DNA of 64,000 bases from Escherichia phage vB_EcoM_G2540-3, in sequence record MK327944.1; one strand, written 5' to 3'. Position numbers and translations under genes: made by a program. How positions within the stretch are numbered: position 1 is the stretch's first letter; every line of letters starts with the position of its first letter. Of the stretch, positions 4,447 to 62,790 are shown piece after piece. The notes beneath the pieces were generated by a model. The model did not search any database. It was not told the DNA's origin and was given only the letters and a program-made list of their open reading frames with translations.

Positions 4447-5064
4447 ATGTACCACTTTGTATATGAAACAACAAATCTAATAAATGGTAAAAAGTATATA
4501 GGAAAACACTCTACTGATGACTTGAATGATGGTTACCTTGGTTCCGGTAAGGCAATTCAGCAGGCTATAAAGAAATATGGTGAAAACAATTTCTCTAGAA
4601 CAATACTAAAAGAGTTTAAAACTTCCGAAGAAGCGTACATGTATGAAGAAGAAATTATAACTCCTGAAATAATAAAAAGCAAAAATTATTATAATATGAA
4701 ACCTGGCGGAATTGGTGGAATTGTTATGACTACAGAGGTTATAGCAAAGATGAAAGAATCTTCCGCTAAGAGATTTGAAAACTCACCGGGCACGGTATTA
4801 GGTACAACTTGTTACACTAATGGAACTAAAAATATTTTTATTAAGCCTGGAGAACTTGTTCCAGAAGGATTTGTAAAAGGGATGGTTCATCCTAATAGAA
4901 AGTCCAGAAAAGGATGTAAAGTCAAACCGACTACCACAGGAACTTTTTGGGTCAATAATGGTGCAATAAATAAATTAATACAACCAGACGGTATTATTCC
5001 CGACGGATTTATTAAAGGTCGTCTCATGAAAAGAGATTCTAAAGGCAAATTTAGTAAGGCATAA
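4447..5064 (+). CDS. segE: GIY-YIG homing endonuclease, SegE-like
   Basis: N-terminal GIY-YIG module (YHFVYETTNLINGKKYIGKHS…); located between inh and uvsW exactly where T4 segE lies. Confidence 0.8.
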   Translation: MYHFVYETTNLINGKKYIGKHSTDDLNDGYLGSGKAIQQAIKKYGENNFSRTILKEFKTSEEAYMYEEEIITPEIIKSKNYYNMKPGGIGGIVMTTEVIAKMKESSAKRFENSPGTVLGTTCYTNGTKNIFIKPGELVPEGFVKGMVHPNRKSRKGCKVKPTTTGTFWVNNGAINKLIQPDGIIPDGFIKGRLMKRDSKGKFSKA

Positions 5065-5066
5065 TT

Positions 5067-6575
5067 ATGGATATTAAAGTACATTTTCACGACTTCAGTC
5101 ATGTACGCATCGATTGTGAAGAGAGCACGTTCCACGAATTAAGAGATTTCTTTTCGTTTGAGGCCGATGGATATAGATTTAACCCTCGCTTCAGATATGG
5201 CAACTGGGATGGACGAATCCGTCTTTTAGATTATAATCGTCTTCTTCCGTTTGGCTTAGTCGGGCAAATTAAAAAGTTCTGTGATAACTTTGGCTATAAA
5301 GCCTGGATTGACCCGCAAATTAACGAAAAAGAAGAATTATCAAGAAAAGATTTTGATGAATGGCTTTCTAAATTAGAAATCTATTCAGGAAATAAAAGAA
5401 TTGAACCGCACTGGTATCAAAAAGATGCAGTGTTCGAAGGATTAGTTAATCGTCGTAGAATTCTTAATCTTCCAACATCCGCAGGTAAATCTTTAATTCA
5501 AGCTTTGCTTGCACGTTATTATTTGGAAAATTATGAAGGTAAAATTCTTATCATTGTTCCAACAACTGCTCTGACAACTCAGATGGCTGATGACTTCGTC
5601 GACTATCGTTTATTCAGTCATGCAATGATAAAGAAAATTGGTGGCGGAGCATCAAAAGATGATAAATATAAAAATGATGCACCAGTCGTTGTTGGTACAT
5701 GGCAAACTGTAGTTAAACAACCGAAAGAATGGTTCTCACAGTTTGGAATGATGATGAATGATGAATGTCATCTTGCTACAGGAAAAAGTATTTCATCTAT
5801 CATATCAGGTTTAAATAACTGCATGTTCAAATTCGGTTTGTCTGGTTCATTACGTGATGGCAAAGCCAATATCATGCAGTATGTTGGAATGTTTGGTGAA
5901 ATATTTAAGCCAGTAACGACTTCTAAATTAATGGAAGATGGACAAGTAACTGAGCTAAAAATTAATAGTATTTTTCTTCGCTATCCAGATGAGTTCACTA
6001 CTAAATTAAAGGGAAAAACTTATCAAGAAGAAATAAAAATTATTACTGGGCTCAGTAAAAGAAATAAATGGATCGCTAAATTAGCTATTAAGCTTGCGCA
6101 AAAAGATGAAAACGCTTTTGTCATGTTTAAACATGTATCACATGGTAAAGCTATTTTCGATTTAATTAAAAACGAATACGATAAAGTTTATTACGTATCA
6201 GGGGAAGTTGATACAGAAACCCGCAATATAATGAAAACCTTAGCTGAAAACGGTAAAGGAATAATTATAGTAGCTAGTTATGGTGTATTTTCTACTGGTA
6301 TTTCAGTTAAAAATCTGCATCACGTTGTTTTAGCACACGGTGTTAAATCAAAAATCATTGTATTACAAACAATCGGTCGTGTATTACGTAAGCATGGTTC
6401 TAAAACAATCGCAACAGTCTGGGACCTCATAGATGACGCGGGTGTAGTTTCTAAATCAAAAACATCTTCTAAAAAATACTCGCATTTAAACTATCTTTTA
6501 AAACATGGACTTGATCGTATTCAGCGTTATGCTGATGAAAAGTTTAATTATGTGATGAAAGAGGTTAAACTTTGA
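5067..6575 (+). CDS. uvsW: UvsW RNA-DNA/DNA helicase
   Basis: 502 aa, SF2 helicase motifs (LNLPTSAGKS Walker A, DECH box); N-terminus MDIKVHFHDF. Confidence 0.92.
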   Translation: MDIKVHFHDFSHVRIDCEESTFHELRDFFSFEADGYRFNPRFRYGNWDGRIRLLDYNRLLPFGLVGQIKKFCDNFGYKAWIDPQINEKEELSRKDFDEWLSKLEIYSGNKRIEPHWYQKDAVFEGLVNRRRILNLPTSAGKSLIQALLARYYLENYEGKILIIVPTTALTTQMADDFVDYRLFSHAMIKKIGGGASKDDKYKNDAPVVVGTWQTVVKQPKEWFSQFGMMMNDECHLATGKSISSIISGLNNCMFKFGLSGSLRDGKANIMQYVGMFGEIFKPVTTSKLMEDGQVTELKINSIFLRYPDEFTTKLKGKTYQEEIKIITGLSKRNKWIAKLAIKLAQKDENAFVMFKHVSHGKAIFDLIKNEYDKVYYVSGEVDTETRNIMKTLAENGKGIIIVASYGVFSTGISVKNLHHVVLAHGVKSKIIVLQTIGRVLRKHGSKTIATVWDLIDDAGVVSKSKTSSKKYSHLNYLLKHGLDRIQRYADEKFNYVMKEVKL

Positions 6576-57258: not shown

Positions 57259-57894
57259 TCACAGTTCAGATGCTACAGTGATTACAGCTTCAATGTTTTC
57301 TGCCGAGCGTTTAATGTCAAGATACACATTACCGTTTTTAGCGATTTTACATGACATTCCGATGTCAGTAAATTTCTGAATATGATGTTCCATCATTTTG
57401 TATCCAAAAATTCGCATATTTCCATTGTTGTTAATTTCAAAATTACGAATTCCGTGAGTGCGTTTTTCTAAAATAGCGAGATAGTTACTGCGGTAAGTTT
57501 CAACCTTTTTAAGAACAAATCCATTTTCATCTAAAAGTTTTAACATGAAGTCTTTATCTTCTTCCATATCAGAAGTAATTTCGCGAGCTTTACGAGTTGC
57601 TCGTTTTTTCAGCAGTTCCGGAGCGTTTTCCTGTGCGTATAAAGTTGCTGCATTTGAAATAATATCCTGAGCTTCACCAGTAATGATTAATCCATCACCA
57701 GATTTCTCCACCAGGCCTTTTTTAATCAATACCCCAATATTACTATTAACTACTGCATTACCTAAATCTGGATGCACCTCACGAACTTCTGCAGCTGTAA
57801 TGAAATCTTTCTTAGCAATGGTAATTAAAATCGCAGCAGTTTTTTCATTCAGAATATCGTTAGAAGCTTTGATGATGTAAGTTACTTTAGACAT
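57259..57894 (-). CDS. motA: Middle transcription activator MotA
   Basis: 211 aa, MSKVTYIIKASNDILNEKTAAILITIAKKDFITAAEVREVHP…. Confidence 0.93.
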   Translation of the reverse strand: MSKVTYIIKASNDILNEKTAAILITIAKKDFITAAEVREVHPDLGNAVVNSNIGVLIKKGLVEKSGDGLIITGEAQDIISNAATLYAQENAPELLKKRATRKAREITSDMEEDKDFMLKLLDENGFVLKKVETYRSNYLAILEKRTHGIRNFEINNNGNMRIFGYKMMEHHIQKFTDIGMSCKIAKNGNVYLDIKRSAENIEAVITVASEL

Positions 57895-57899
57895 TTTAA

Positions 57900-57955
57900 T
57901 CTCCGTTTCAGTTCATTTATTTGATAGGTCTATAGTATCATGTTTAAAGCAGAAG
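57900..57955 (-). promoter_or_regulatory. Early-promoter-like element upstream of motA
   Basis: Minus-strand aaaaagtGTTTACttctgctttaaacatgatactatagacc. Confidence 0.45.
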
Positions 57956-57999
57956 TAAACACTTTTTTGCACTCTTTTTCAAGAGCTCTAATAAAGTAC

Positions 58000-58227
58000 T
58001 TACTTAATGTTCAGATTACGAACTTCGATTTCGTCTTCATGGGCAAAATCAAACTGTTTGAATTCTGTGTCACCTTTAAATTTAAAAATCATTGTGAAGA
58101 AAGTCAGAACACCAGGTTTTTCTTCACGAACTCCACAGATATCATATTCAATACCATCTACAACCAGTTTGTTAGCAGTCAGAGCATTTTTAGCTTTAAC
58201 GATTTCGTTTTCGATTTTAAATTTCAT
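58000..58227 (-). CDS. Hypothetical protein (motA.1 position)
   Basis: 75-aa ATG ORF. Confidence 0.5.
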   Translation of the reverse strand: MKFKIENEIVKAKNALTANKLVVDGIEYDICGVREEKPGVLTFFTMIFKFKGDTEFKQFDFAHEDEIEVRNLNIK

Positions 58228-58254
58228 TTTTTGTATCTCCGGGTTGTTTGTTTC

Positions 58255-58360
58255 AGTTCATTTATTTGATAGTTGTATAGTACCACAGTATGCTTTGGTT
58301 GTAAACCGTTTTGTGAAAAAATTTTTGAAATAAAAAAGGGAGAGCCTCGGCTCTCCCTAA
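58255..58360 (-). promoter_or_regulatory. PeSL-like cassette: terminator hairpin (gggagagccgaggctctccc plus T-run) and early-promoter-like element
   Basis: Shares 36-bp identical core with 41491-41526. Confidence 0.5.
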
Positions 58361-58362
58361 AA

Positions 58363-58512
58363 TTACTGCATGACTGTGATAACTGTCATGATAACACGTT
58401 GAATTCCGAACGCAAGAAGACCTCCTGCTACGGCAGGAACAACACCTAAACCCGCCAGTAAAATGCCACCAGATACTAATGCAGCGCTTGTGATACCAAT
58501 GAATGGACTCAT
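58363..58512 (-). CDS. Small hydrophobic membrane peptide, 49 aa (ac/52.1-like position)
   Basis: Hand-translated MSPFIGITSAALVSGGILLAGLGVVPAVAGGLLAFGIQRVIMTVITVMQ; ATGA overlap with gene 52 stop. Confidence 0.45.
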   Translation of the reverse strand: MSPFIGITSAALVSGGILLAGLGVVPAVAGGLLAFGIQRVIMTVITVMQ

Positions 58513-59837
58513 TTGATTTCCTCTAAATCTTTGGTGTATTCTGTAACTACATCAGTAGTTTTCCAATATTCGTTTTCTTCTTTTTTGGCTTTAGCTTCTT
58601 CAGCAAGTTTCTTTGCTTCGTCGGAAGTCATATGAAAAATGTTCATTCCAACTAGTTTATCAACATAAGAAGAATACATATCGATTTTCGAAAGTTCTTC
58701 GGTCAGTTCTTTGCGAGTTTTACCCTGTACAACGATTTCACCTGAAATTACTTTCTTAATGAAATGTGCCTTGGCAAAGGCTAAACGAAAAGCTGATTCA
58801 GTTTCTTTGATTTTGTTATCAATTCGTTTTTGGACATAAGTTTTACGAACTTCAACAAAGTCTTTAATTAAATCAACTACGTTATCGTAAACTTGCAGCT
58901 TTCCTTTCTCATTAATGACTGTAATATTTTGGGAACGACGCTCAATCAACCCGAAGTCTTTCATGATTTTTGCATGGCGTTCTTCTTCGTTATCACTCAA
59001 AGCGTATTCTTTGCGGAATTTAACTTTAAAGCCAAAGCCATGCTCACCACAAGCATCATCCCACGTAATGAAGCCTTTATCTTCAAGTGGGTCTAAGATT
59101 TTACTCACATAAGTTTCACGATCATACTTATACGGAATCTCAGTGATATGCATTTGAGTTCGTGAAGTAAACTTATATGTTCCACGAATTTCATATTGTC
59201 CATCAATTTCAACGACTTCACCACGAAATTCTGGGAATTCTACCTTCGGTTTAGTTACTTTCTTTCCTTGAAGAGCTTGCAGTACAGCTTTCTTAACAGA
59301 AGAAACACTATGAGGAAGAATGTAAGTTGCATAACCAGTTGCAATACCGGAAACGCCATTAAGAAGAACAGTAGGAATAATAGGCAAATAGAAAGCAGGC
59401 GGAATGTGTTCTTTATCTTGATGTACCGGAGCATATTCAGTATCTTTATATACGTTATAGAAATTTTTACTTACACGAGCAAAAATATAACGACTTGCCG
59501 CTGCTTTTTGAACAGTACGAGAACCAAAGTTTCCTTGACCGTCTAACAGAGGAAAGTTATTATTCCAAGTGTTAGCCATCAAAGCACCTGCGTCTTGCGC
59601 AGAGTTTTCACCATGATGATATCCAAGGTCCGCTACACCGCCTGCGATAGAAGCGAGTTTGTGAAACTTATCTTTATTTCCTCGTGCCAAATCAAGAGCT
59701 CGAGCAATAACAAATCGTTGAACTGGCTTAAATCCGTCAATCATATTTGGAATGGCACGATTTTCAACCGTGTACATAGCATAAGCCAATGCTTCATTAT
59801 CAATGATACTTTTTAAATCGCGATTATTCAGTTGCAT
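58509..59837 (-). CDS. 52: DNA topoisomerase II medium subunit gp52
   Basis: 442 aa, topo IIA DNA-cleavage-domain homology. Confidence 0.92.
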   Translation of the reverse strand: MQLNNRDLKSIIDNEALAYAMYTVENRAIPNMIDGFKPVQRFVIARALDLARGNKDKFHKLASIAGGVADLGYHHGENSAQDAGALMANTWNNNFPLLDGQGNFGSRTVQKAAASRYIFARVSKNFYNVYKDTEYAPVHQDKEHIPPAFYLPIIPTVLLNGVSGIATGYATYILPHSVSSVKKAVLQALQGKKVTKPKVEFPEFRGEVVEIDGQYEIRGTYKFTSRTQMHITEIPYKYDRETYVSKILDPLEDKGFITWDDACGEHGFGFKVKFRKEYALSDNEEERHAKIMKDFGLIERRSQNITVINEKGKLQVYDNVVDLIKDFVEVRKTYVQKRIDNKIKETESAFRLAFAKAHFIKKVISGEIVVQGKTRKELTEELSKIDMYSSYVDKLVGMNIFHMTSDEAKKLAEEAKAKKEENEYWKTTDVVTEYTKDLEEIK

Positions 59838-59841
59838 AAAT

Positions 59842-59982
59842 TTACCATACTAGTGAATGTAGTGCCATAATAACATCAGAAATGAAAAGCACGACTTGAA
59901 TTAATCCGAACATTACTCCATAATATAGTGCTACTAATAAAGTAGCAAGGGCTAATGAATAGCCCAAGATTTTCTTAATCAT
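59842..59982 (-). CDS. Small hydrophobic peptide, 46 aa
   Basis: Hand-translated MIKKILGYSLALATLLVALYYGVMFGLIQVVLFISDVIMALHSLVW. Confidence 0.4.
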   Translation of the reverse strand: MIKKILGYSLALATLLVALYYGVMFGLIQVVLFISDVIMALHSLVW

Positions 59983-60133
59983 TAGTAGATAACAACACAA
60001 ATGTTAAATATGCACACATACCCTGGGCTAAAGCTTGTGAAAACACACTGCTAGCATCGATACAGATAGTTAAAACACATGCTACTATCCAACAAATAAA
60101 TGAAATAACTCCTAATAATTTTGCGATATTCAT
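59975..60133 (-). CDS. Small Cys-rich hydrophobic peptide, 52 aa
   Basis: Hand-translated MNIAKLLGVISFICWIVACVLTICIDASSVFSQALAQGMCAYLTFVLLSTND. Confidence 0.4.
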   Translation of the reverse strand: MNIAKLLGVISFICWIVACVLTICIDASSVFSQALAQGMCAYLTFVLLSTND

Positions 60134-60220
60134 ATTTTCCTCACTGGCGTCCGAAGACGCCTTTAGTTTTAAGATTATTACGATAGAACTGCATCACGTG
60201 TTCGTTGTGGAAATTACTCA

Positions 60221-60679
60221 TTAATATGCCTGCAAAACGAATTTAAAATTATCAGCCAACATACGGTTCATTTCTTCAAGTGTTTGATACTCAGAATGAT
60301 GATTACGAGTAAACGCTAAAGCTAACTGTCCTTTTCCAAATCCCGTCGTCAGAGGTTTCATCTTAGAAGCAAGCAGATAAAATACTGTGTATGGAACATT
60401 GTTATTTGCAATAGTACGTGCAAGCTGAGACCGACGTTGACGAATATGACTTAGAACTGCACTGAATCCTTGCTTAGAACGCTGATTACCTACATAAAAT
60501 CGTGCAGACACACATGGATTACTAAATGGACGACCATCTAATTTACTTACTAAAAAATAAAATCCAGGTTTAGATAAAATATCTTTATGCGGAGTTCCCA
60601 AAAACCATTCACCGCCCTTGATTGTGCCAATAACAGTAGCGCCTGCATTATTCAGATCAGTAACAGTCATGTATTTCAT
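60221..60679 (-). CDS. ndd: Nucleoid disruption protein Ndd
   Basis: [35 protein letters not shown]… from ATG at 60679 with SD gaggaaa; track ORF starts 16 codons upstream. Confidence 0.88.
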
Positions 60680-60739
60680 ATTAATTTCCTCTAAATTATT
60701 TTCTACTCCAAGGCCGCGTGTATTCATGCGGCCATTAAA

Positions 60740-60955
60740 TTAATCGTCGCAGTCGACGCTCAATTCCCAAAACTCTTCTACGGTATAAGTTTCAGTATCA
60801 TTTTCAATACAGAAACGTTCATTACTGTTATTTGCTAAAGTAGCGTTAACTGTCATTTTCTCGCTGGTGCTCTTAAGAGGTGAAATACGAATTAACTGAT
60901 CACCACTATCCAAGCAAAAAATTTCACCAACTTTTACATCTTTAAAGATTTTCAT
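60740..60955 (-). CDS. Hypothetical protein
   Basis: 71-aa ATG ORF. Confidence 0.5.
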   Translation of the reverse strand: MKIFKDVKVGEIFCLDSGDQLIRISPLKSTSEKMTVNATLANNSNERFCIENDTETYTVEEFWELSVDCDD

Positions 60956-61070
60956 AATTCACCTCAAGGAGTATAAAATCCAAATGCAGTTGTTGACCAT
61001 CCCATCCAATATGGAAAATTTGCGCCAATGTAAAACATAAGAATATAAAACCAACCACTCAGCAAATTCA

Positions 61071-61268
61071 TCATTTTACACCATTCCAAATTGTTTCAAC
61101 CACGGATTTTAAACCATTTTGATGAATATCCATTCCGACTACCGTCATCAAATAAATTCCAACTACAACTGAACCTAAGGCAAAAATCAGCATGAAAATG
61201 AATAAAGCCGGAAAAATATTATCGAAAAACCATTCAATAAATGTAAAAGCACTGCGTTTACGCTTCAT
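61071..61268 (-). CDS. Small membrane protein, 65 aa
   Basis: ATG at 61268 with SD gaggaaaat; hydrophobic core FPALFIFMLIFALGSVVVGIYLMTVV. Confidence 0.45.
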   Translation of the reverse strand: MKRKRSAFTFIEWFFDNIFPALFIFMLIFALGSVVVGIYLMTVVGMDIHQNGLKSVVETIWNGVK

Positions 61269-61275
61269 ATTTTCC

Positions 61276-61389
61276 TCACATAAATCCAAAGTAAACGTTT
61301 AATACATCAATCATTAAAACGATTGGGAATATACTCAAAACTATTAGTATTATAACTACATTCCATATAGCTTTAACAATCTTTTTCAT
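61276..61389 (-). CDS. Small hydrophobic peptide, 37 aa
   Basis: ATG at 61389 with SD ggagg downstream of promoter-like element; MKKIVKAIWNVVIILIVLSIFPIVLMIDVLNVYFGFM. Confidence 0.4.
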   Translation of the reverse strand: MKKIVKAIWNVVIILIVLSIFPIVLMIDVLNVYFGFM

Positions 61390-61394
61390 TTTCT

Positions 61395-61445
61395 GTTCCT
61401 CCGTAGTTGATAGGGTAATAGTACCACGGAAGAACAGTCTTGTAA
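61395..61445 (-). promoter_or_regulatory. Early-promoter-like element
   Basis: Minus-strand aaaaaagttGTTTACaagactgttcttccgtggtactattaccc. Confidence 0.45.
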
Positions 61446-61454
61446 ACAACTTTT

Positions 61455-61553
61455 TTAAAAATATTCGTAATAAATGTGAATACCAATCACTACTGCCGAA
61501 ACTTGTGCAACCCACCATGCACACGCAATAAGTACAGAATTCAAAATTTTCAT
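61455..61553 (-). CDS. Small hydrophobic peptide, about 32 aa
   Basis: Hand-translated MKILNSVLIACAWWVAQVSAVVIGIHIYYEYF. Confidence 0.3.
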   Translation of the reverse strand: MKILNSVLIACAWWVAQVSAVVIGIHIYYEYF

Positions 61554-61632
61554 AATAACCTCATCACAAAAGTAAATGTTAAACAAATTACTGGAATACT
61601 AATTAACCAAACAAAACACCAACATAATGAAC

Positions 61633-61896
61633 TCATAGTTCAATCTCAACGATTTCCAAGTGTTTTTGTTTTATTGCCTTTTTAACACAATCATGGACTA
61701 AATATGACCATGAATCATTATATTCTCCATTAACTAATCGTTGGAGATCTTCACGTGATGATAAGTAAGGTTGATCTGATTCCCATTTTGATAAAAATAC
61801 TGCAGTAAAAATATCTCCTTCATCTGTAGTTGAAGTCGTAAATGCAATAAATTCACCGGTAATTTTATGTTTAGCGTAATAAAATTTAAATTTCAT
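61633..61896 (-). CDS. Hypothetical protein, 87 aa
   Basis: ATG at 61896 with SD ggagg (MKFKFYYAKHKITGEF…); track ORF extends upstream over a promoter-like element. Confidence 0.5.
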   Translation of the reverse strand: MKFKFYYAKHKITGEFIAFTTSTTDEGDIFTAVFLSKWESDQPYLSSREDLQRLVNGEYNDSWSYLVHDCVKKAIKQKHLEIVEIEL

Positions 61897-61899
61897 TTT

Positions 61900-61960
61900 T
61901 ACTCCTCCGTAGCTGATAGTTGTATAGTACCACGGTCCTTGTGGTATGTAAACTGTTTTG
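61900..61960 (-). promoter_or_regulatory. Early-promoter-like element
   Basis: Minus-strand …cacaaaacaGTTTACataccacaaggaccgtggtactatacaac…. Confidence 0.45.
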
Positions 61961-61970
61961 TGAAAATTTT

Positions 61971-62528
61971 TTAAATGGAAAGATACCATCCATTGTAGTT
62001 GCTTTTTCTTACAACCTTACGAAGGTCTTCTCTGTCACCGATGAACTTCGGAGTGTACTGGATAACACCTGGATGAATTTCTTTAGTGTTGAATATAATT
62101 ATACAGTCAGCGACTTGATGATTTAGAATGGGCCCTAGATTTATTCCAGAACCGTATGGATACTCTCCGCTGCATCCTGTTGTTACAGAAATCCAACGTG
62201 AGCCAGTTTGATGTGTCTTAACTTCTACACGAAGCCCACAGTATTTTGGATGTGCTAAAACATCCCACGCGTATGTATATGGATCATCGACATCTTCTTG
62301 ACCTTTATTAACATACCCGCTTAGCCAATCTGCTACAAAAAACTCTGCGTATACAGCAATACGACATCTTTCAATAACTTCTGCTTTATCCTGGTTCGGG
62401 TTTTGTTTTAAAGAGTATCTTGCAGTATCAGCAATTTTGACCTTCATTTCGCTAGTCAAGTCACTGTTCGATAGGGTAAATGTCGGAATCTGAAATAGTC
62501 TCTGTAAACCCGGATTCGTTTTCTGCAT
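61971..62528 (-). CDS. denB: Endonuclease IV DenB
   Basis: 185 aa at T4 denB position upstream of ndd region, ATG with SD aaggaaag. Confidence 0.7.
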   Translation of the reverse strand: MQKTNPGLQRLFQIPTFTLSNSDLTSEMKVKIADTARYSLKQNPNQDKAEVIERCRIAVYAEFFVADWLSGYVNKGQEDVDDPYTYAWDVLAHPKYCGLRVEVKTHQTGSRWISVTTGCSGEYPYGSGINLGPILNHQVADCIIIFNTKEIHPGVIQYTPKFIGDREDLRKVVRKSNYNGWYLSI

Positions 62529-62790
62529 TTAGACTTTCCTTTTTACCACTGAGATAAGCGTTATATACTTTAAGAGTGCCGTAATAAATTCGGTCATTTT
62601 CATCTAAAGACTCGCGGTCAAGTTCATCGAGCTCCTTTTTATCCATGACTATAACATCATTACAGTAAAGAAACCCAAGTTTTTCGTGACCAAACTCAAA
62701 TTTATTACAGTACACAATATTAGCGTGATGATTTCCGTGCAGTTTAATCTCTTTTATGTCGGAATCACCGATATTCATACAATAAATCAT
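62461..62790 (-). CDS. Hypothetical protein (denB.1 position)
   Basis: 109-aa ATG ORF with SD aaggaaaa; 3' end overlaps denB start by 68 nt in another frame. Confidence 0.5.
   Translation of the reverse strand: MIYCMNIGDSDIKEIKLHGNHHANIVYCNKFEFGHEKLGFLYCNDVIVMDKKELDELDRESLDENDRIYYGTLKVYNAYLSGKKESLNAENESGFTETISDSDIYPIEQ

Follow-up and report, generated by a model that had tools for sequence, protein, structure and literature searches.

Small hydrophobic open reading frames (ORFs) crowd the surroundings of the nucleoid disruption gene ndd in Escherichia phage vB_EcoM_G2540-3. In the 64,000-nucleotide (nt) stretch of this genome that we analyzed (record MK327944.1; hereafter the window), they lie between positions 58,363 and 61,636 and raise two questions: are they genes, and, if so, on what might their products act in the infected cell? 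A sequence-only reading of the window had proposed at least six ORFs of 30 to 65 amino acids (aa) here. We found seven ORFs in that size range and two shorter ones, and all nine (motA.1, 52.1, ac, stp, ndd.2, ndd.2a together with ndd.3, ndd.4, ndd.5, and ndd.6) were confirmed to be genes. The flagged stretch, in a T4-like phage, is the block of nonessential early genes that surrounds gene 52 and ndd. We consider it probable that its early peptides act in the inner membrane by modulating host membrane machines.

Nine small genes around gene 52 and ndd

The window belongs to the genus Tequatrovirus. The 4.4 kb around the feature matched Escherichia phage vB_EcoM_C2-3 best, at 99.5% identity, and megablast alignments were collinear end to end with hundreds of Tequatrovirus genomes at 97 to 99% identity. 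Every gene of the block is carried on the minus strand, and the order and orientation from motA to denB are the same as in T4 (NC_000866, T4p263 to T4p275), as are the overlaps and the PHROG and Pfam families. The T-even setting proposed earlier, with gene 52, ndd, and denB in a variable region of host-takeover functions, matches this gene order, and comparison with T4 returned the same genes where small membrane peptides had been placed. All nine ORFs are orthologs of named T4 genes, with 96 to 100% amino acid identity, and the peptides are not anonymous as had been supposed. The window differs from T4 in an intact 65-aa ORF spanning ndd.3 and ndd.2a, a 37-aa ndd.4, an extra threonine in Ac, and three extra genes nearby (orf75, orf87, and orf109).

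Eight of the nine ORFs, of 28 to 65 aa, are hydrophobic, with a best 19-residue Kyte-Doolittle hydropathy (H19) of 2.2 to 3.1 except in ndd.2 (1.17). The ninth, stp, is hydrophilic, so that the description of the interval as one of membrane peptides holds for the other eight. Its placement between gene 52 and denB needs amending for motA.1, which lies beyond the far side of gene 52, and of the "several" cysteine-rich peptides we found two, Ac (4 Cys) and Ndd.6 (3 Cys).

ORFs that combined a Shine-Dalgarno (SD) sequence of at least 4 bases with an H19 of at least 1.6 numbered five, compared with a mean of 0.06 and a maximum of 2 in 1,000 dinucleotide shuffles and with none on the antisense strand. 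The earlier statement that the ORFs have SD sequences is correct for five or six ORFs, and the remainder of the nine start by translational coupling. The ATGs of 52.1, ndd.2, and ndd.6, which lack a good SD, overlap the preceding stop codon, and such a stop/start overlap is the usual T4 layout for coupled translation. In an alignment of 18 Tequatrovirus sequences, each ORF was intact in its start, frame, and stop in 16 to 18 of the 17 to 18 genomes that covered it, and third codon positions took most of the substitutions.

We calculated the ratio of nonsynonymous to synonymous substitution rates (dN/dS) by the Nei-Gojobori method in the annotated frame and in the two other frames. The off-frame ratio was about 1 or more for most of the small genes; the exceptions were the sparsely variable ndd.6, 52.1, and ndd.4, in which at least one off-frame value was undefined or did not exceed the in-frame value. 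Comparison across genera gave dN/dS values of 0.26 to 0.53, with synonymous sites saturating. A PHROG family was found for every small peptide, and Pfam families were also found for stp, 52.1, ndd.2a, and ac. These data provide evidence that purifying selection maintains all nine small ORFs, for ndd.4 on the basis of its cross-genus conservation.

Could the ORFs nevertheless be chance, untranslated frames in AT-rich intergenic DNA? Their peptides lack mass spectrometric detection, and three of them lack a clear SD, as that explanation would have it. It has to contend with the five ORFs observed where shuffles give 0.06, with frames that are kept while third positions vary, with dN/dS values that, in most of the ORFs, fall well below 1 in no frame but the annotated one, with peptide motifs kept across genera, and with existing genetics for ac and stp. 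Because of the selection analysis, we regard the chance reading as refuted for practical purposes and its probability as negligible. RNA sequencing of T4 (Wolfram-Schauerte et al., PMC9697503, Table S2) assigned motA.1, 52.1, ac, stp, and ndd.2 to ndd.6 to the early transcript class. An Rfam scan of the interval gave no match reaching the gathering score, and no tRNAs were found in it.

The peptides are already known, as annotated T4 genes in a documented hyperplastic region, two of them with assigned roles. As cited in a later paper, the T4 genome review spoke of "three clusters of predicted membrane proteins" and had recognized this cluster. The micro-genes have stood on the T4 map for about thirty years, mostly without a function, and are candidate phage-encoded small membrane regulators. 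The new points made here are minor, namely, the split of ndd.3 and ndd.2a as a probable reference error and the membrane micro-ORFs that flank gene 52. Their practical value lies in cleaner gene models (65-aa ndd.2a, 37-aa ndd.4, and 35-aa ndd.2), in the evidence of selection, and in the flanking of gene 52.

Table 1. Genes, promoters, and terminator of the block, in window coordinates. T4 identity is the number of residues identical to the T4 protein; dN/dS is the in-frame value.
Feature	Positions	Strand	Description	T4 identity	PHROG family	H19	Start	dN/dS
motA	57259-57894	-						
Early-promoter variant	57932-57960	-	14-nt spacer, before motA					
orf75	58000-58227	-	75 aa, not in T4		PHROG 10955			
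T4-type early promoter	58277-58306	-	Before orf75					
Intrinsic terminator hairpin	58337-58358	-	After motA.1; 9-pair stem, 6 G-C pairs, then T run					
motA.1	58363-58512	-	49 aa, Gly-rich, hydrophobic	48/49	phrog_3487	2.26	GAGGA; ATG overlaps gene 52 stop (ATGA)	0.07
Gene 52	58509-59837	-	Topoisomerase II medium subunit; context gene	440/442 (gp52)				
52.1	59842-59982	-	46 aa; ends 4 nt ahead of gene 52 start	45/46		2.35	No SD; ATG overlaps ac end by 8 nt	0.32
ac	59975-60133	-	52 aa	51/51 plus one inserted Thr	phrog_2501 (E = 3.7e-25)	2.74	GAGGA	0.30
stp	60141-60221	-	26 aa, hydrophilic	26/26		-0.85	One base shared with ndd stop	0.09
ndd	60221-60679	-	Nucleoid disruption protein; context gene	148/151				
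ndd.1	60740-60955	-	71-aa soluble acidic protein; context gene	68/71	phrog_2183			
ndd.2	60964-61074	-	35 or 36 aa, aromatic-rich	35/36	phrog_4135	1.17	ATGA overlap	0.14
65-aa ORF (T4 ndd.3 + ndd.2a)	61071-61268	-	65 aa	39/40 over T4-annotated part		2.71	GAGGA	0.07
ndd.4	61276-61389	-	37 aa, one membrane segment	36/37	phrog_3098	3.06	GGAGGA	0.61 (5 variable sites only, uninformative at this depth)
T4-type early promoter	61418-61447	-	GTTTAC, 15 nt, TGG, TACTAT; before ndd.4					
ndd.5	61455-61553	-	32 aa, one membrane segment	31/32	phrog_5011	2.18	ATGA overlap + GAGG	0.07
ndd.6	61550-61636	-	28 aa, Cys/Trp-rich	27/28	phrog_8851	2.33	ATGA overlap	0.17
orf87	61633-61896	-	87-aa soluble protein, not in T4		phrog_2390			
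T4-type early promoter	61924-61953	-	Upstream of orf87					
denB	61971-62528	-	185-aa reading frame					
orf109	62461-62790		109 aa, not in T4		PHROG 2237			

Ac, Stp, and probable action at the inner membrane

The peptides had been read as having no assigned function, which is wrong for ac (acriflavine sensitivity) and for stp (EcoprrI/PrrC). The Ac protein of the window keeps Gly38, and all 8 of its homolog clusters carry PF26944. A recent preprint (bioRxiv 10.1101/2025.06.30.662393) reported that expression of Ac sensitizes E. coli to acriflavine by 3 logs, that T4 without ac is acriflavine resistant, and that the G38R substitution in Ac leads to resistance while a variant with the additional threonine (PP01) stays sensitive. 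Cells infected or expressing Ac accumulated acriflavine, and the proposed mechanism is a block of AcrAB-TolC efflux (same preprint), a model restated in a 2026 PNAS paper (PMC13250531). The original interpretation of ac by Silver, as cited by later papers, was increased permeability.

In the mechanism that we propose, host RNA polymerase, acting at T4-type early promoters, would transcribe the peptide genes within the first minutes after infection, in one unit comprising orf87, ndd.6, and ndd.5 and a second unit that begins with ndd.4, includes ndd, stp, ac, 52.1, and gene 52, and ends after motA.1 at a terminator. Translation would start from each gene's own SD or by stop/start coupling. Each peptide of 28 to 65 residues is predicted to insert into the host inner membrane, where it would bind and modulate a host membrane machine, rather than act as an enzyme, as the bacterial AcrZ-type small proteins do; jointly, the peptides would remodel envelope physiology for the phage. 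Ac, with its proposed AcrAB-TolC block, is the sole peptide of the set with direct evidence, in the form of acriflavine accumulation, and we infer membrane insertion and partner binding for the other seven. Stp, whose T4 phenotype is published, stands apart: it is soluble and inhibits EcoprrI, which sets off the PrrC anticodon nuclease in prr+ hosts.

Bacterial small proteins provide the closest comparison. AcrZ (49 aa, which binds AcrB), MgtS, and MgrB resemble the phage peptides in size range and in their hydrophobic helix, and the phage peptides are proposed to share their mode of action, in which binding to a large membrane complex changes its activity; Ac is even proposed to act on the pump of AcrZ. 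AcrZ adjusts which substrates are preferred, but Ac would block export; the phage peptides differ further in being phage encoded and expressed early. If Ac really blocks AcrAB-TolC, its neighbor peptides may target further host membrane machines, for example, lipid synthesis, secretion, or defense effectors, which would be of interest for phage therapy combined with antibiotics and for small-protein biology.

Several observations weigh against this proposal. Seven of the eight peptides lack a known host partner, to our knowledge, and membrane insertion and topology are predictions. With regard to the earlier description of the peptides as single-helix, AlphaFold2 monomers gave one continuous helix for 52.1 (predicted local distance difference test score [pLDDT] of 96) and for Ac (pLDDT of 74); such a helix of 44 to 48 residues, modeled without membrane or partner, is not decisive between a hairpin and a single span, and the ESMFold model of Ac in the preprint has two helices (bioRxiv 10.1101/2025.06.30.662393). 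The efflux-block model itself comes from that preprint without a direct binding or efflux assay. Ac could not be aligned with AcrZ, and we rejected homology between them. The small peptides are all "NA" in the T4 time-course proteome, in which Ndd and Ndd.1 were detected (PMC9697503), and our literature search turned up no T4 ribosome-profiling data set. Neither the CRISPRi-ART nor the HIDEN-SEQ paper names these genes in its main text.

Deletion genetics is among the evidence for the proposal. The T4 deletion sa-delta-9 spans 52.1 through denB and still allows a burst of about half the normal size, and it abolishes the stimulation of phospholipid synthesis after infection; the same authors described the products of ndd.1 to ndd.6 as unknown (Kutter et al., PMC6071114). 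The block is dispensable in laboratory hosts. The phospholipid phenotype counts less for the proposal than it might, as it is not assignable to the peptides because this 13-gene deletion also removes denB and ndd.

Stp of the window matched PF08133 at 75.3 bits (cutoff, 25) over positions 1 to 26 of 26, and we infer from its identity to T4 Stp, whose function is given in the T4 annotation and the established literature, that it is the EcoprrI inhibitor and activator of the PrrC anticodon nuclease in prr+ hosts. It is hydrophilic and soluble and is not a membrane peptide.

The proximity of this anti-restriction peptide, which triggers PrrC, is one reason to ask whether its neighbors are mainly weapons or targets in conflict among phages and with the host, which would counteract or trigger membrane abortive-infection or defense systems or, like T4 Imm and Sp, mediate superinfection exclusion, and would not tune housekeeping machines. 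The documented hyperplastic region with cassette exchange would fit such a role, as would the two very different ac allele types and the three of orf87, the lack of matches to ndd.2, ndd.5, and type-A ac in most loci outside Tequatrovirus, apart from a few weak ones, and the nonsense or frameshift lesions of the laboratory strain T2 in ac, stp, and ndd.2a, which are consistent with functions needed only on natural hosts. T4 Imm, Sp, rI, and rIII are likewise early or delayed-early, nonessential, small membrane or periplasmic proteins that alter the envelope; we found no sequence relationship between them and the peptides, and no exclusion or lysis-inhibition phenotype is mapped to these ORFs. 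Unlike typical arms-race genes, 52.1, ndd.4, ndd.2a, and ndd.6 combine cross-genus occurrence with invariant motifs and low dN/dS. No defense system is known to depend on any of the peptides, and Ac, the one that has been studied, points to a housekeeping pump. A main role in conflict therefore seems unlikely to us, if worth keeping in view.

A further suggestion is that the peptides are membrane-damaging toxins of the type I toxin or holin-like kind, which would depolarize or permeabilize the inner membrane and so shut down the host, with acriflavine uptake as a by-product of the leak. Silver's permeability interpretation, as later papers cite it, points this way, as do the size and hydrophobicity that the peptides share with Hok/Gef, TisB, and similar peptides. 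Besides being short, hydrophobic, and Cys containing, Ndd.6 has the SSL-WC and (V/I)CLT strings of the Hok membrane segment; it differs from Hok in having no periplasmic Cys-containing domain and no antisense RNA context. This weak likeness reached E = 0.001 in gapped pairwise comparison only. It had no profile support: Pfam gave no match at E values up to 1, and a hidden Markov model of Ndd.6 scored Hok-family sequences at 1 to 6 bits, barely above composition-matched shuffles. We accordingly rejected Ndd.6 as a Hok-like toxin. For about 25 minutes, the phage depends on an energized membrane, and rII is one of several T4 genes that serve to preserve it. Expression of Ac alone was not reported to be lethal without the drug (bioRxiv 10.1101/2025.06.30.662393). 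We hold the toxin explanation to be very improbable and retain modulation of host membrane machines as the favored one.

The ac-stp region has several features of its own. Two very different types of ac occur in Tequatrovirus, that of T4 and a second one present in RB51 and RPN226; the second type resembles versions from other genera, and the two have in common only W15, T22, and an SV.SQ..AQ motif. In 8 of 8 genome records of phage T2, Ser11 of ac is replaced by a nonsense codon and the C terminus of Stp is altered, and the T2 annotation keeps just a 13-aa "ac." T2 is also the only one of the 18 aligned Tequatrovirus genomes with a nonsense codon in the 65-aa ORF (single record). We rejected the idea that the T2 ac and stp lesions are "escape mutant" mutations, as all 8 records, the wild type included, were identical over a 261-nt ac-stp query. 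A perfect UUCG-tetraloop hairpin (mRNA GGCGUC-UUCG-GACGCC; 60146-60161) lies in the last stp codons, just before the ac SD, and the spacer between ndd.1 and ndd holds another hairpin that is rich in G+C (about 60695-60720). An 81-aa metagenome-derived protein (P0017) carries both the Stp and the Ac Pfam domains, probably because the gene call ran on through the 7 nt between stp and ac.

The hydrophobic peptides and the flanks of gene 52

The longest of the peptides, encoded by the 65-aa ORF, has a basic N terminus, one membrane segment, and an invariant C-terminal tail, GLKSV..(I/L)WNG, and matched Pfam DUF7248 (PF23906) at 71 bits (cutoff, 27) over residues 6 to 63. Cross-genus alignment showed that the membrane segment varies while the tail is fixed, which, together with the basic N terminus, suggests an N-in, C-out anchor that would present a periplasmic tail. 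The window and 16 of 18 relatives have a single 65-aa ORF. Its split into ndd.3 and ndd.2a in T4 (positions 4933-5129 of our T4 reference, L001) comes from one G missing after ATGAA. The missing G is confined to the original T4 records X75802, AF158101, and NC_000866, and the base is present in five independently sequenced T4 stocks and in about 480 other genomes. Given its presence in resequenced T4 stocks, we take the split to be a probable error of the reference sequence.

Two further gene models can be refined. The 42-aa start of T4 ndd.4 is due to a T4-only ACG-to-ATG change inside the SD region (window positions 61389-61410), and all other genomes support the 37-aa form. For ndd.2, the second ATG (61071), which gives the 35-aa form, is the conserved start, because the first ATG is ATA in five relatives.

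For a wider comparison, we used 36 loci around Ndd homologs of 46 to 99% identity. 52.1, ndd.4, the 65-aa ORF, and ndd.6 recurred in other genera at these loci, whereas type-A ac, ndd.2, and ndd.5 gave few, weak matches and were not found in most loci outside Tequatrovirus. Motifs were kept across genera in 52.1 (LF-x-(S/A)-(D/R)-V ... W), in Ndd.4 (MKK..K.IWN ... IFP.VLMIDV), and in Ndd.6 (WC..W..IP.IC), the gene for which is coupled by stop/start overlaps to both orf87 and ndd.5. The conservation of invariant motifs in 52.1, ndd.2a, and ndd.6, and not of hydrophobicity alone, therefore argues for specific partners. Other genera have different, two-segment peptides between ndd and gene 52.

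The 52.1 peptide matched Pfam DUF7396 (PF24129) at 81.9 bits (cutoff, 27) over positions 1 to 46 of 46. A profile search of 1.84 billion representatives returned 9 clusters of about 46 aa or with misplaced starts and no fusions of 52.1, and word-indexed protein searches with 52.1, Ac, and Ndd.2a matched only T4-like phage proteins. We also considered paralogy among the peptide families, including the Ac types, a 53-aa GVWVP family, a 57-aa FERL family, 52.1, motA.1, ndd.4, and ndd.2a. Several were linked by blastp-short, run with no composition correction; hhalign gave probabilities below 7% for all 36 family pairs. Because profile-profile comparison gave no support, we take these links to be compositional and rejected paralogy.

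Analysis of the positions beside gene 52 showed a 52.1-family ORF that ends 1 to 11 nt upstream of the gene in 41 of 44 Ndd-containing loci and a small hydrophobic ORF that overlaps or abuts its stop codon in 39 of 44; as many of the genomes are nearly identical, the 44 loci amount to about ten independent lineages. At least seven unrelated sequence families occupy the downstream position, which is therefore conserved without conservation of sequence. As a control, 40 distant T4-like loci with gp52 42 to 63% identical had a membrane ORF upstream in 4 cases and downstream in 1. Because it is rare in these distant loci, the flanking of gene 52 is specific to the enterobacterial T-even lineage.

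This arrangement invites the explanation that 52.1 and motA.1 are accessory subunits or membrane tethers of gp52 and that the other peptides are unrelated. In addition to the flanking itself, 52.1 has an invariant polar Ser-Asp within its hydrophobic stretch, and gp39 and gp52 were reportedly found in membrane fractions in the 1970s; a search of the literature for a membrane-associated T4 topoisomerase yielded nothing of use. Yet gp52 works without the micro-ORFs in the distant phages, no 52.1-like segment was fused to a larger protein in the profile search, and the small number of lineages reduces the weight of the flanking counts. The sa-delta-9 phage, which lacks 52.1, still grows, and gene 52 mutants have a DNA-delay phenotype. 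We regard this explanation as improbable. A more specific notion is that 52.1 and the peptides at the motA.1 position, as translationally coupled membrane microproteins, might hold the phage topoisomerase at the inner membrane or regulate it there; with ac adjacent, a single early operon would link an acridine-sensitive enzyme, a drug-efflux blocker, and the membrane. We give this notion little credence.

Promoters, cassettes, and variable genes

The small ORFs had been described as interleaved with early-promoter-like elements. The T4 early-promoter motif GTTTAC-N15-TGN-TANNAT occurred 8 times in the window, always on the minus strand, compared with 0.01 expected; one motif lies inside the interval, before ndd.4, and a second lies just upstream of it, before orf87. 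The ndd.4 promoter, leader, and SD are nearly invariant in 18 relatives. The promoters and the terminator therefore point to the two units named above, and ndd.4 to motA.1 would be read through as one transcript.

The earlier designation of the region as hyperplastic agrees with published work: promoter-early stem-loop (PeSL) cassettes were described there previously (Arbiol 2010, PMC2839356; Comeau et al. 2014, PMC4122927), and the exchange of ndd.4/.5 between T4 and PST is a figure example in the latter. Three promoters of the window (58277-58306, 61418-61447, and 61924-61953) fit the PeSL consensus TTTACW-N17-TAYWAT taken from that paper. The likeness to the T4/PST cassettes extends to the hairpin and promoter flanking orf75 and to variable ORFs behind promoters; orf75 and orf87 lie directly behind early promoters and vary among relatives in presence or in allele. 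The window differs from them in that a clear stem-loop stands beside a promoter only at 58277-58358, where the terminator and the orf75 promoter together form a PeSL-like unit. Near the promoters at 61418 and 61924 there are repeats of 4 bp at most, and no convincing stem-loop adjoins them.

All three extra genes (orf75, orf87, and orf109) come and go among relatives. In the region 58000-58358, orf75 is flanked by the terminator hairpin with its early promoter on one side and by a second stem-loop with a promoter on the other. In locus L010, from a phage of another genus, orf75 and its leader are 98.7% identical in nucleotide sequence, while MotA is only 48% and Ndd 62% identical, which therefore indicates a recent transfer of the cassette between genera. 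orf87, which is missing from T4, T2, and RPN226, occurs as three allele types of 53 to 57% mutual identity in genomes that are otherwise 92 to 99% identical. orf109 shares 68 nt with the beginning of the denB reading frame (185 aa), and several annotators therefore put the denB start at an internal Met (158 aa). Finally, residue 103 of Ndd (about 60370-60375) is Leu in the window (FYLLASK) and Pro in 17 of 17 compared relatives (FYLPASK).

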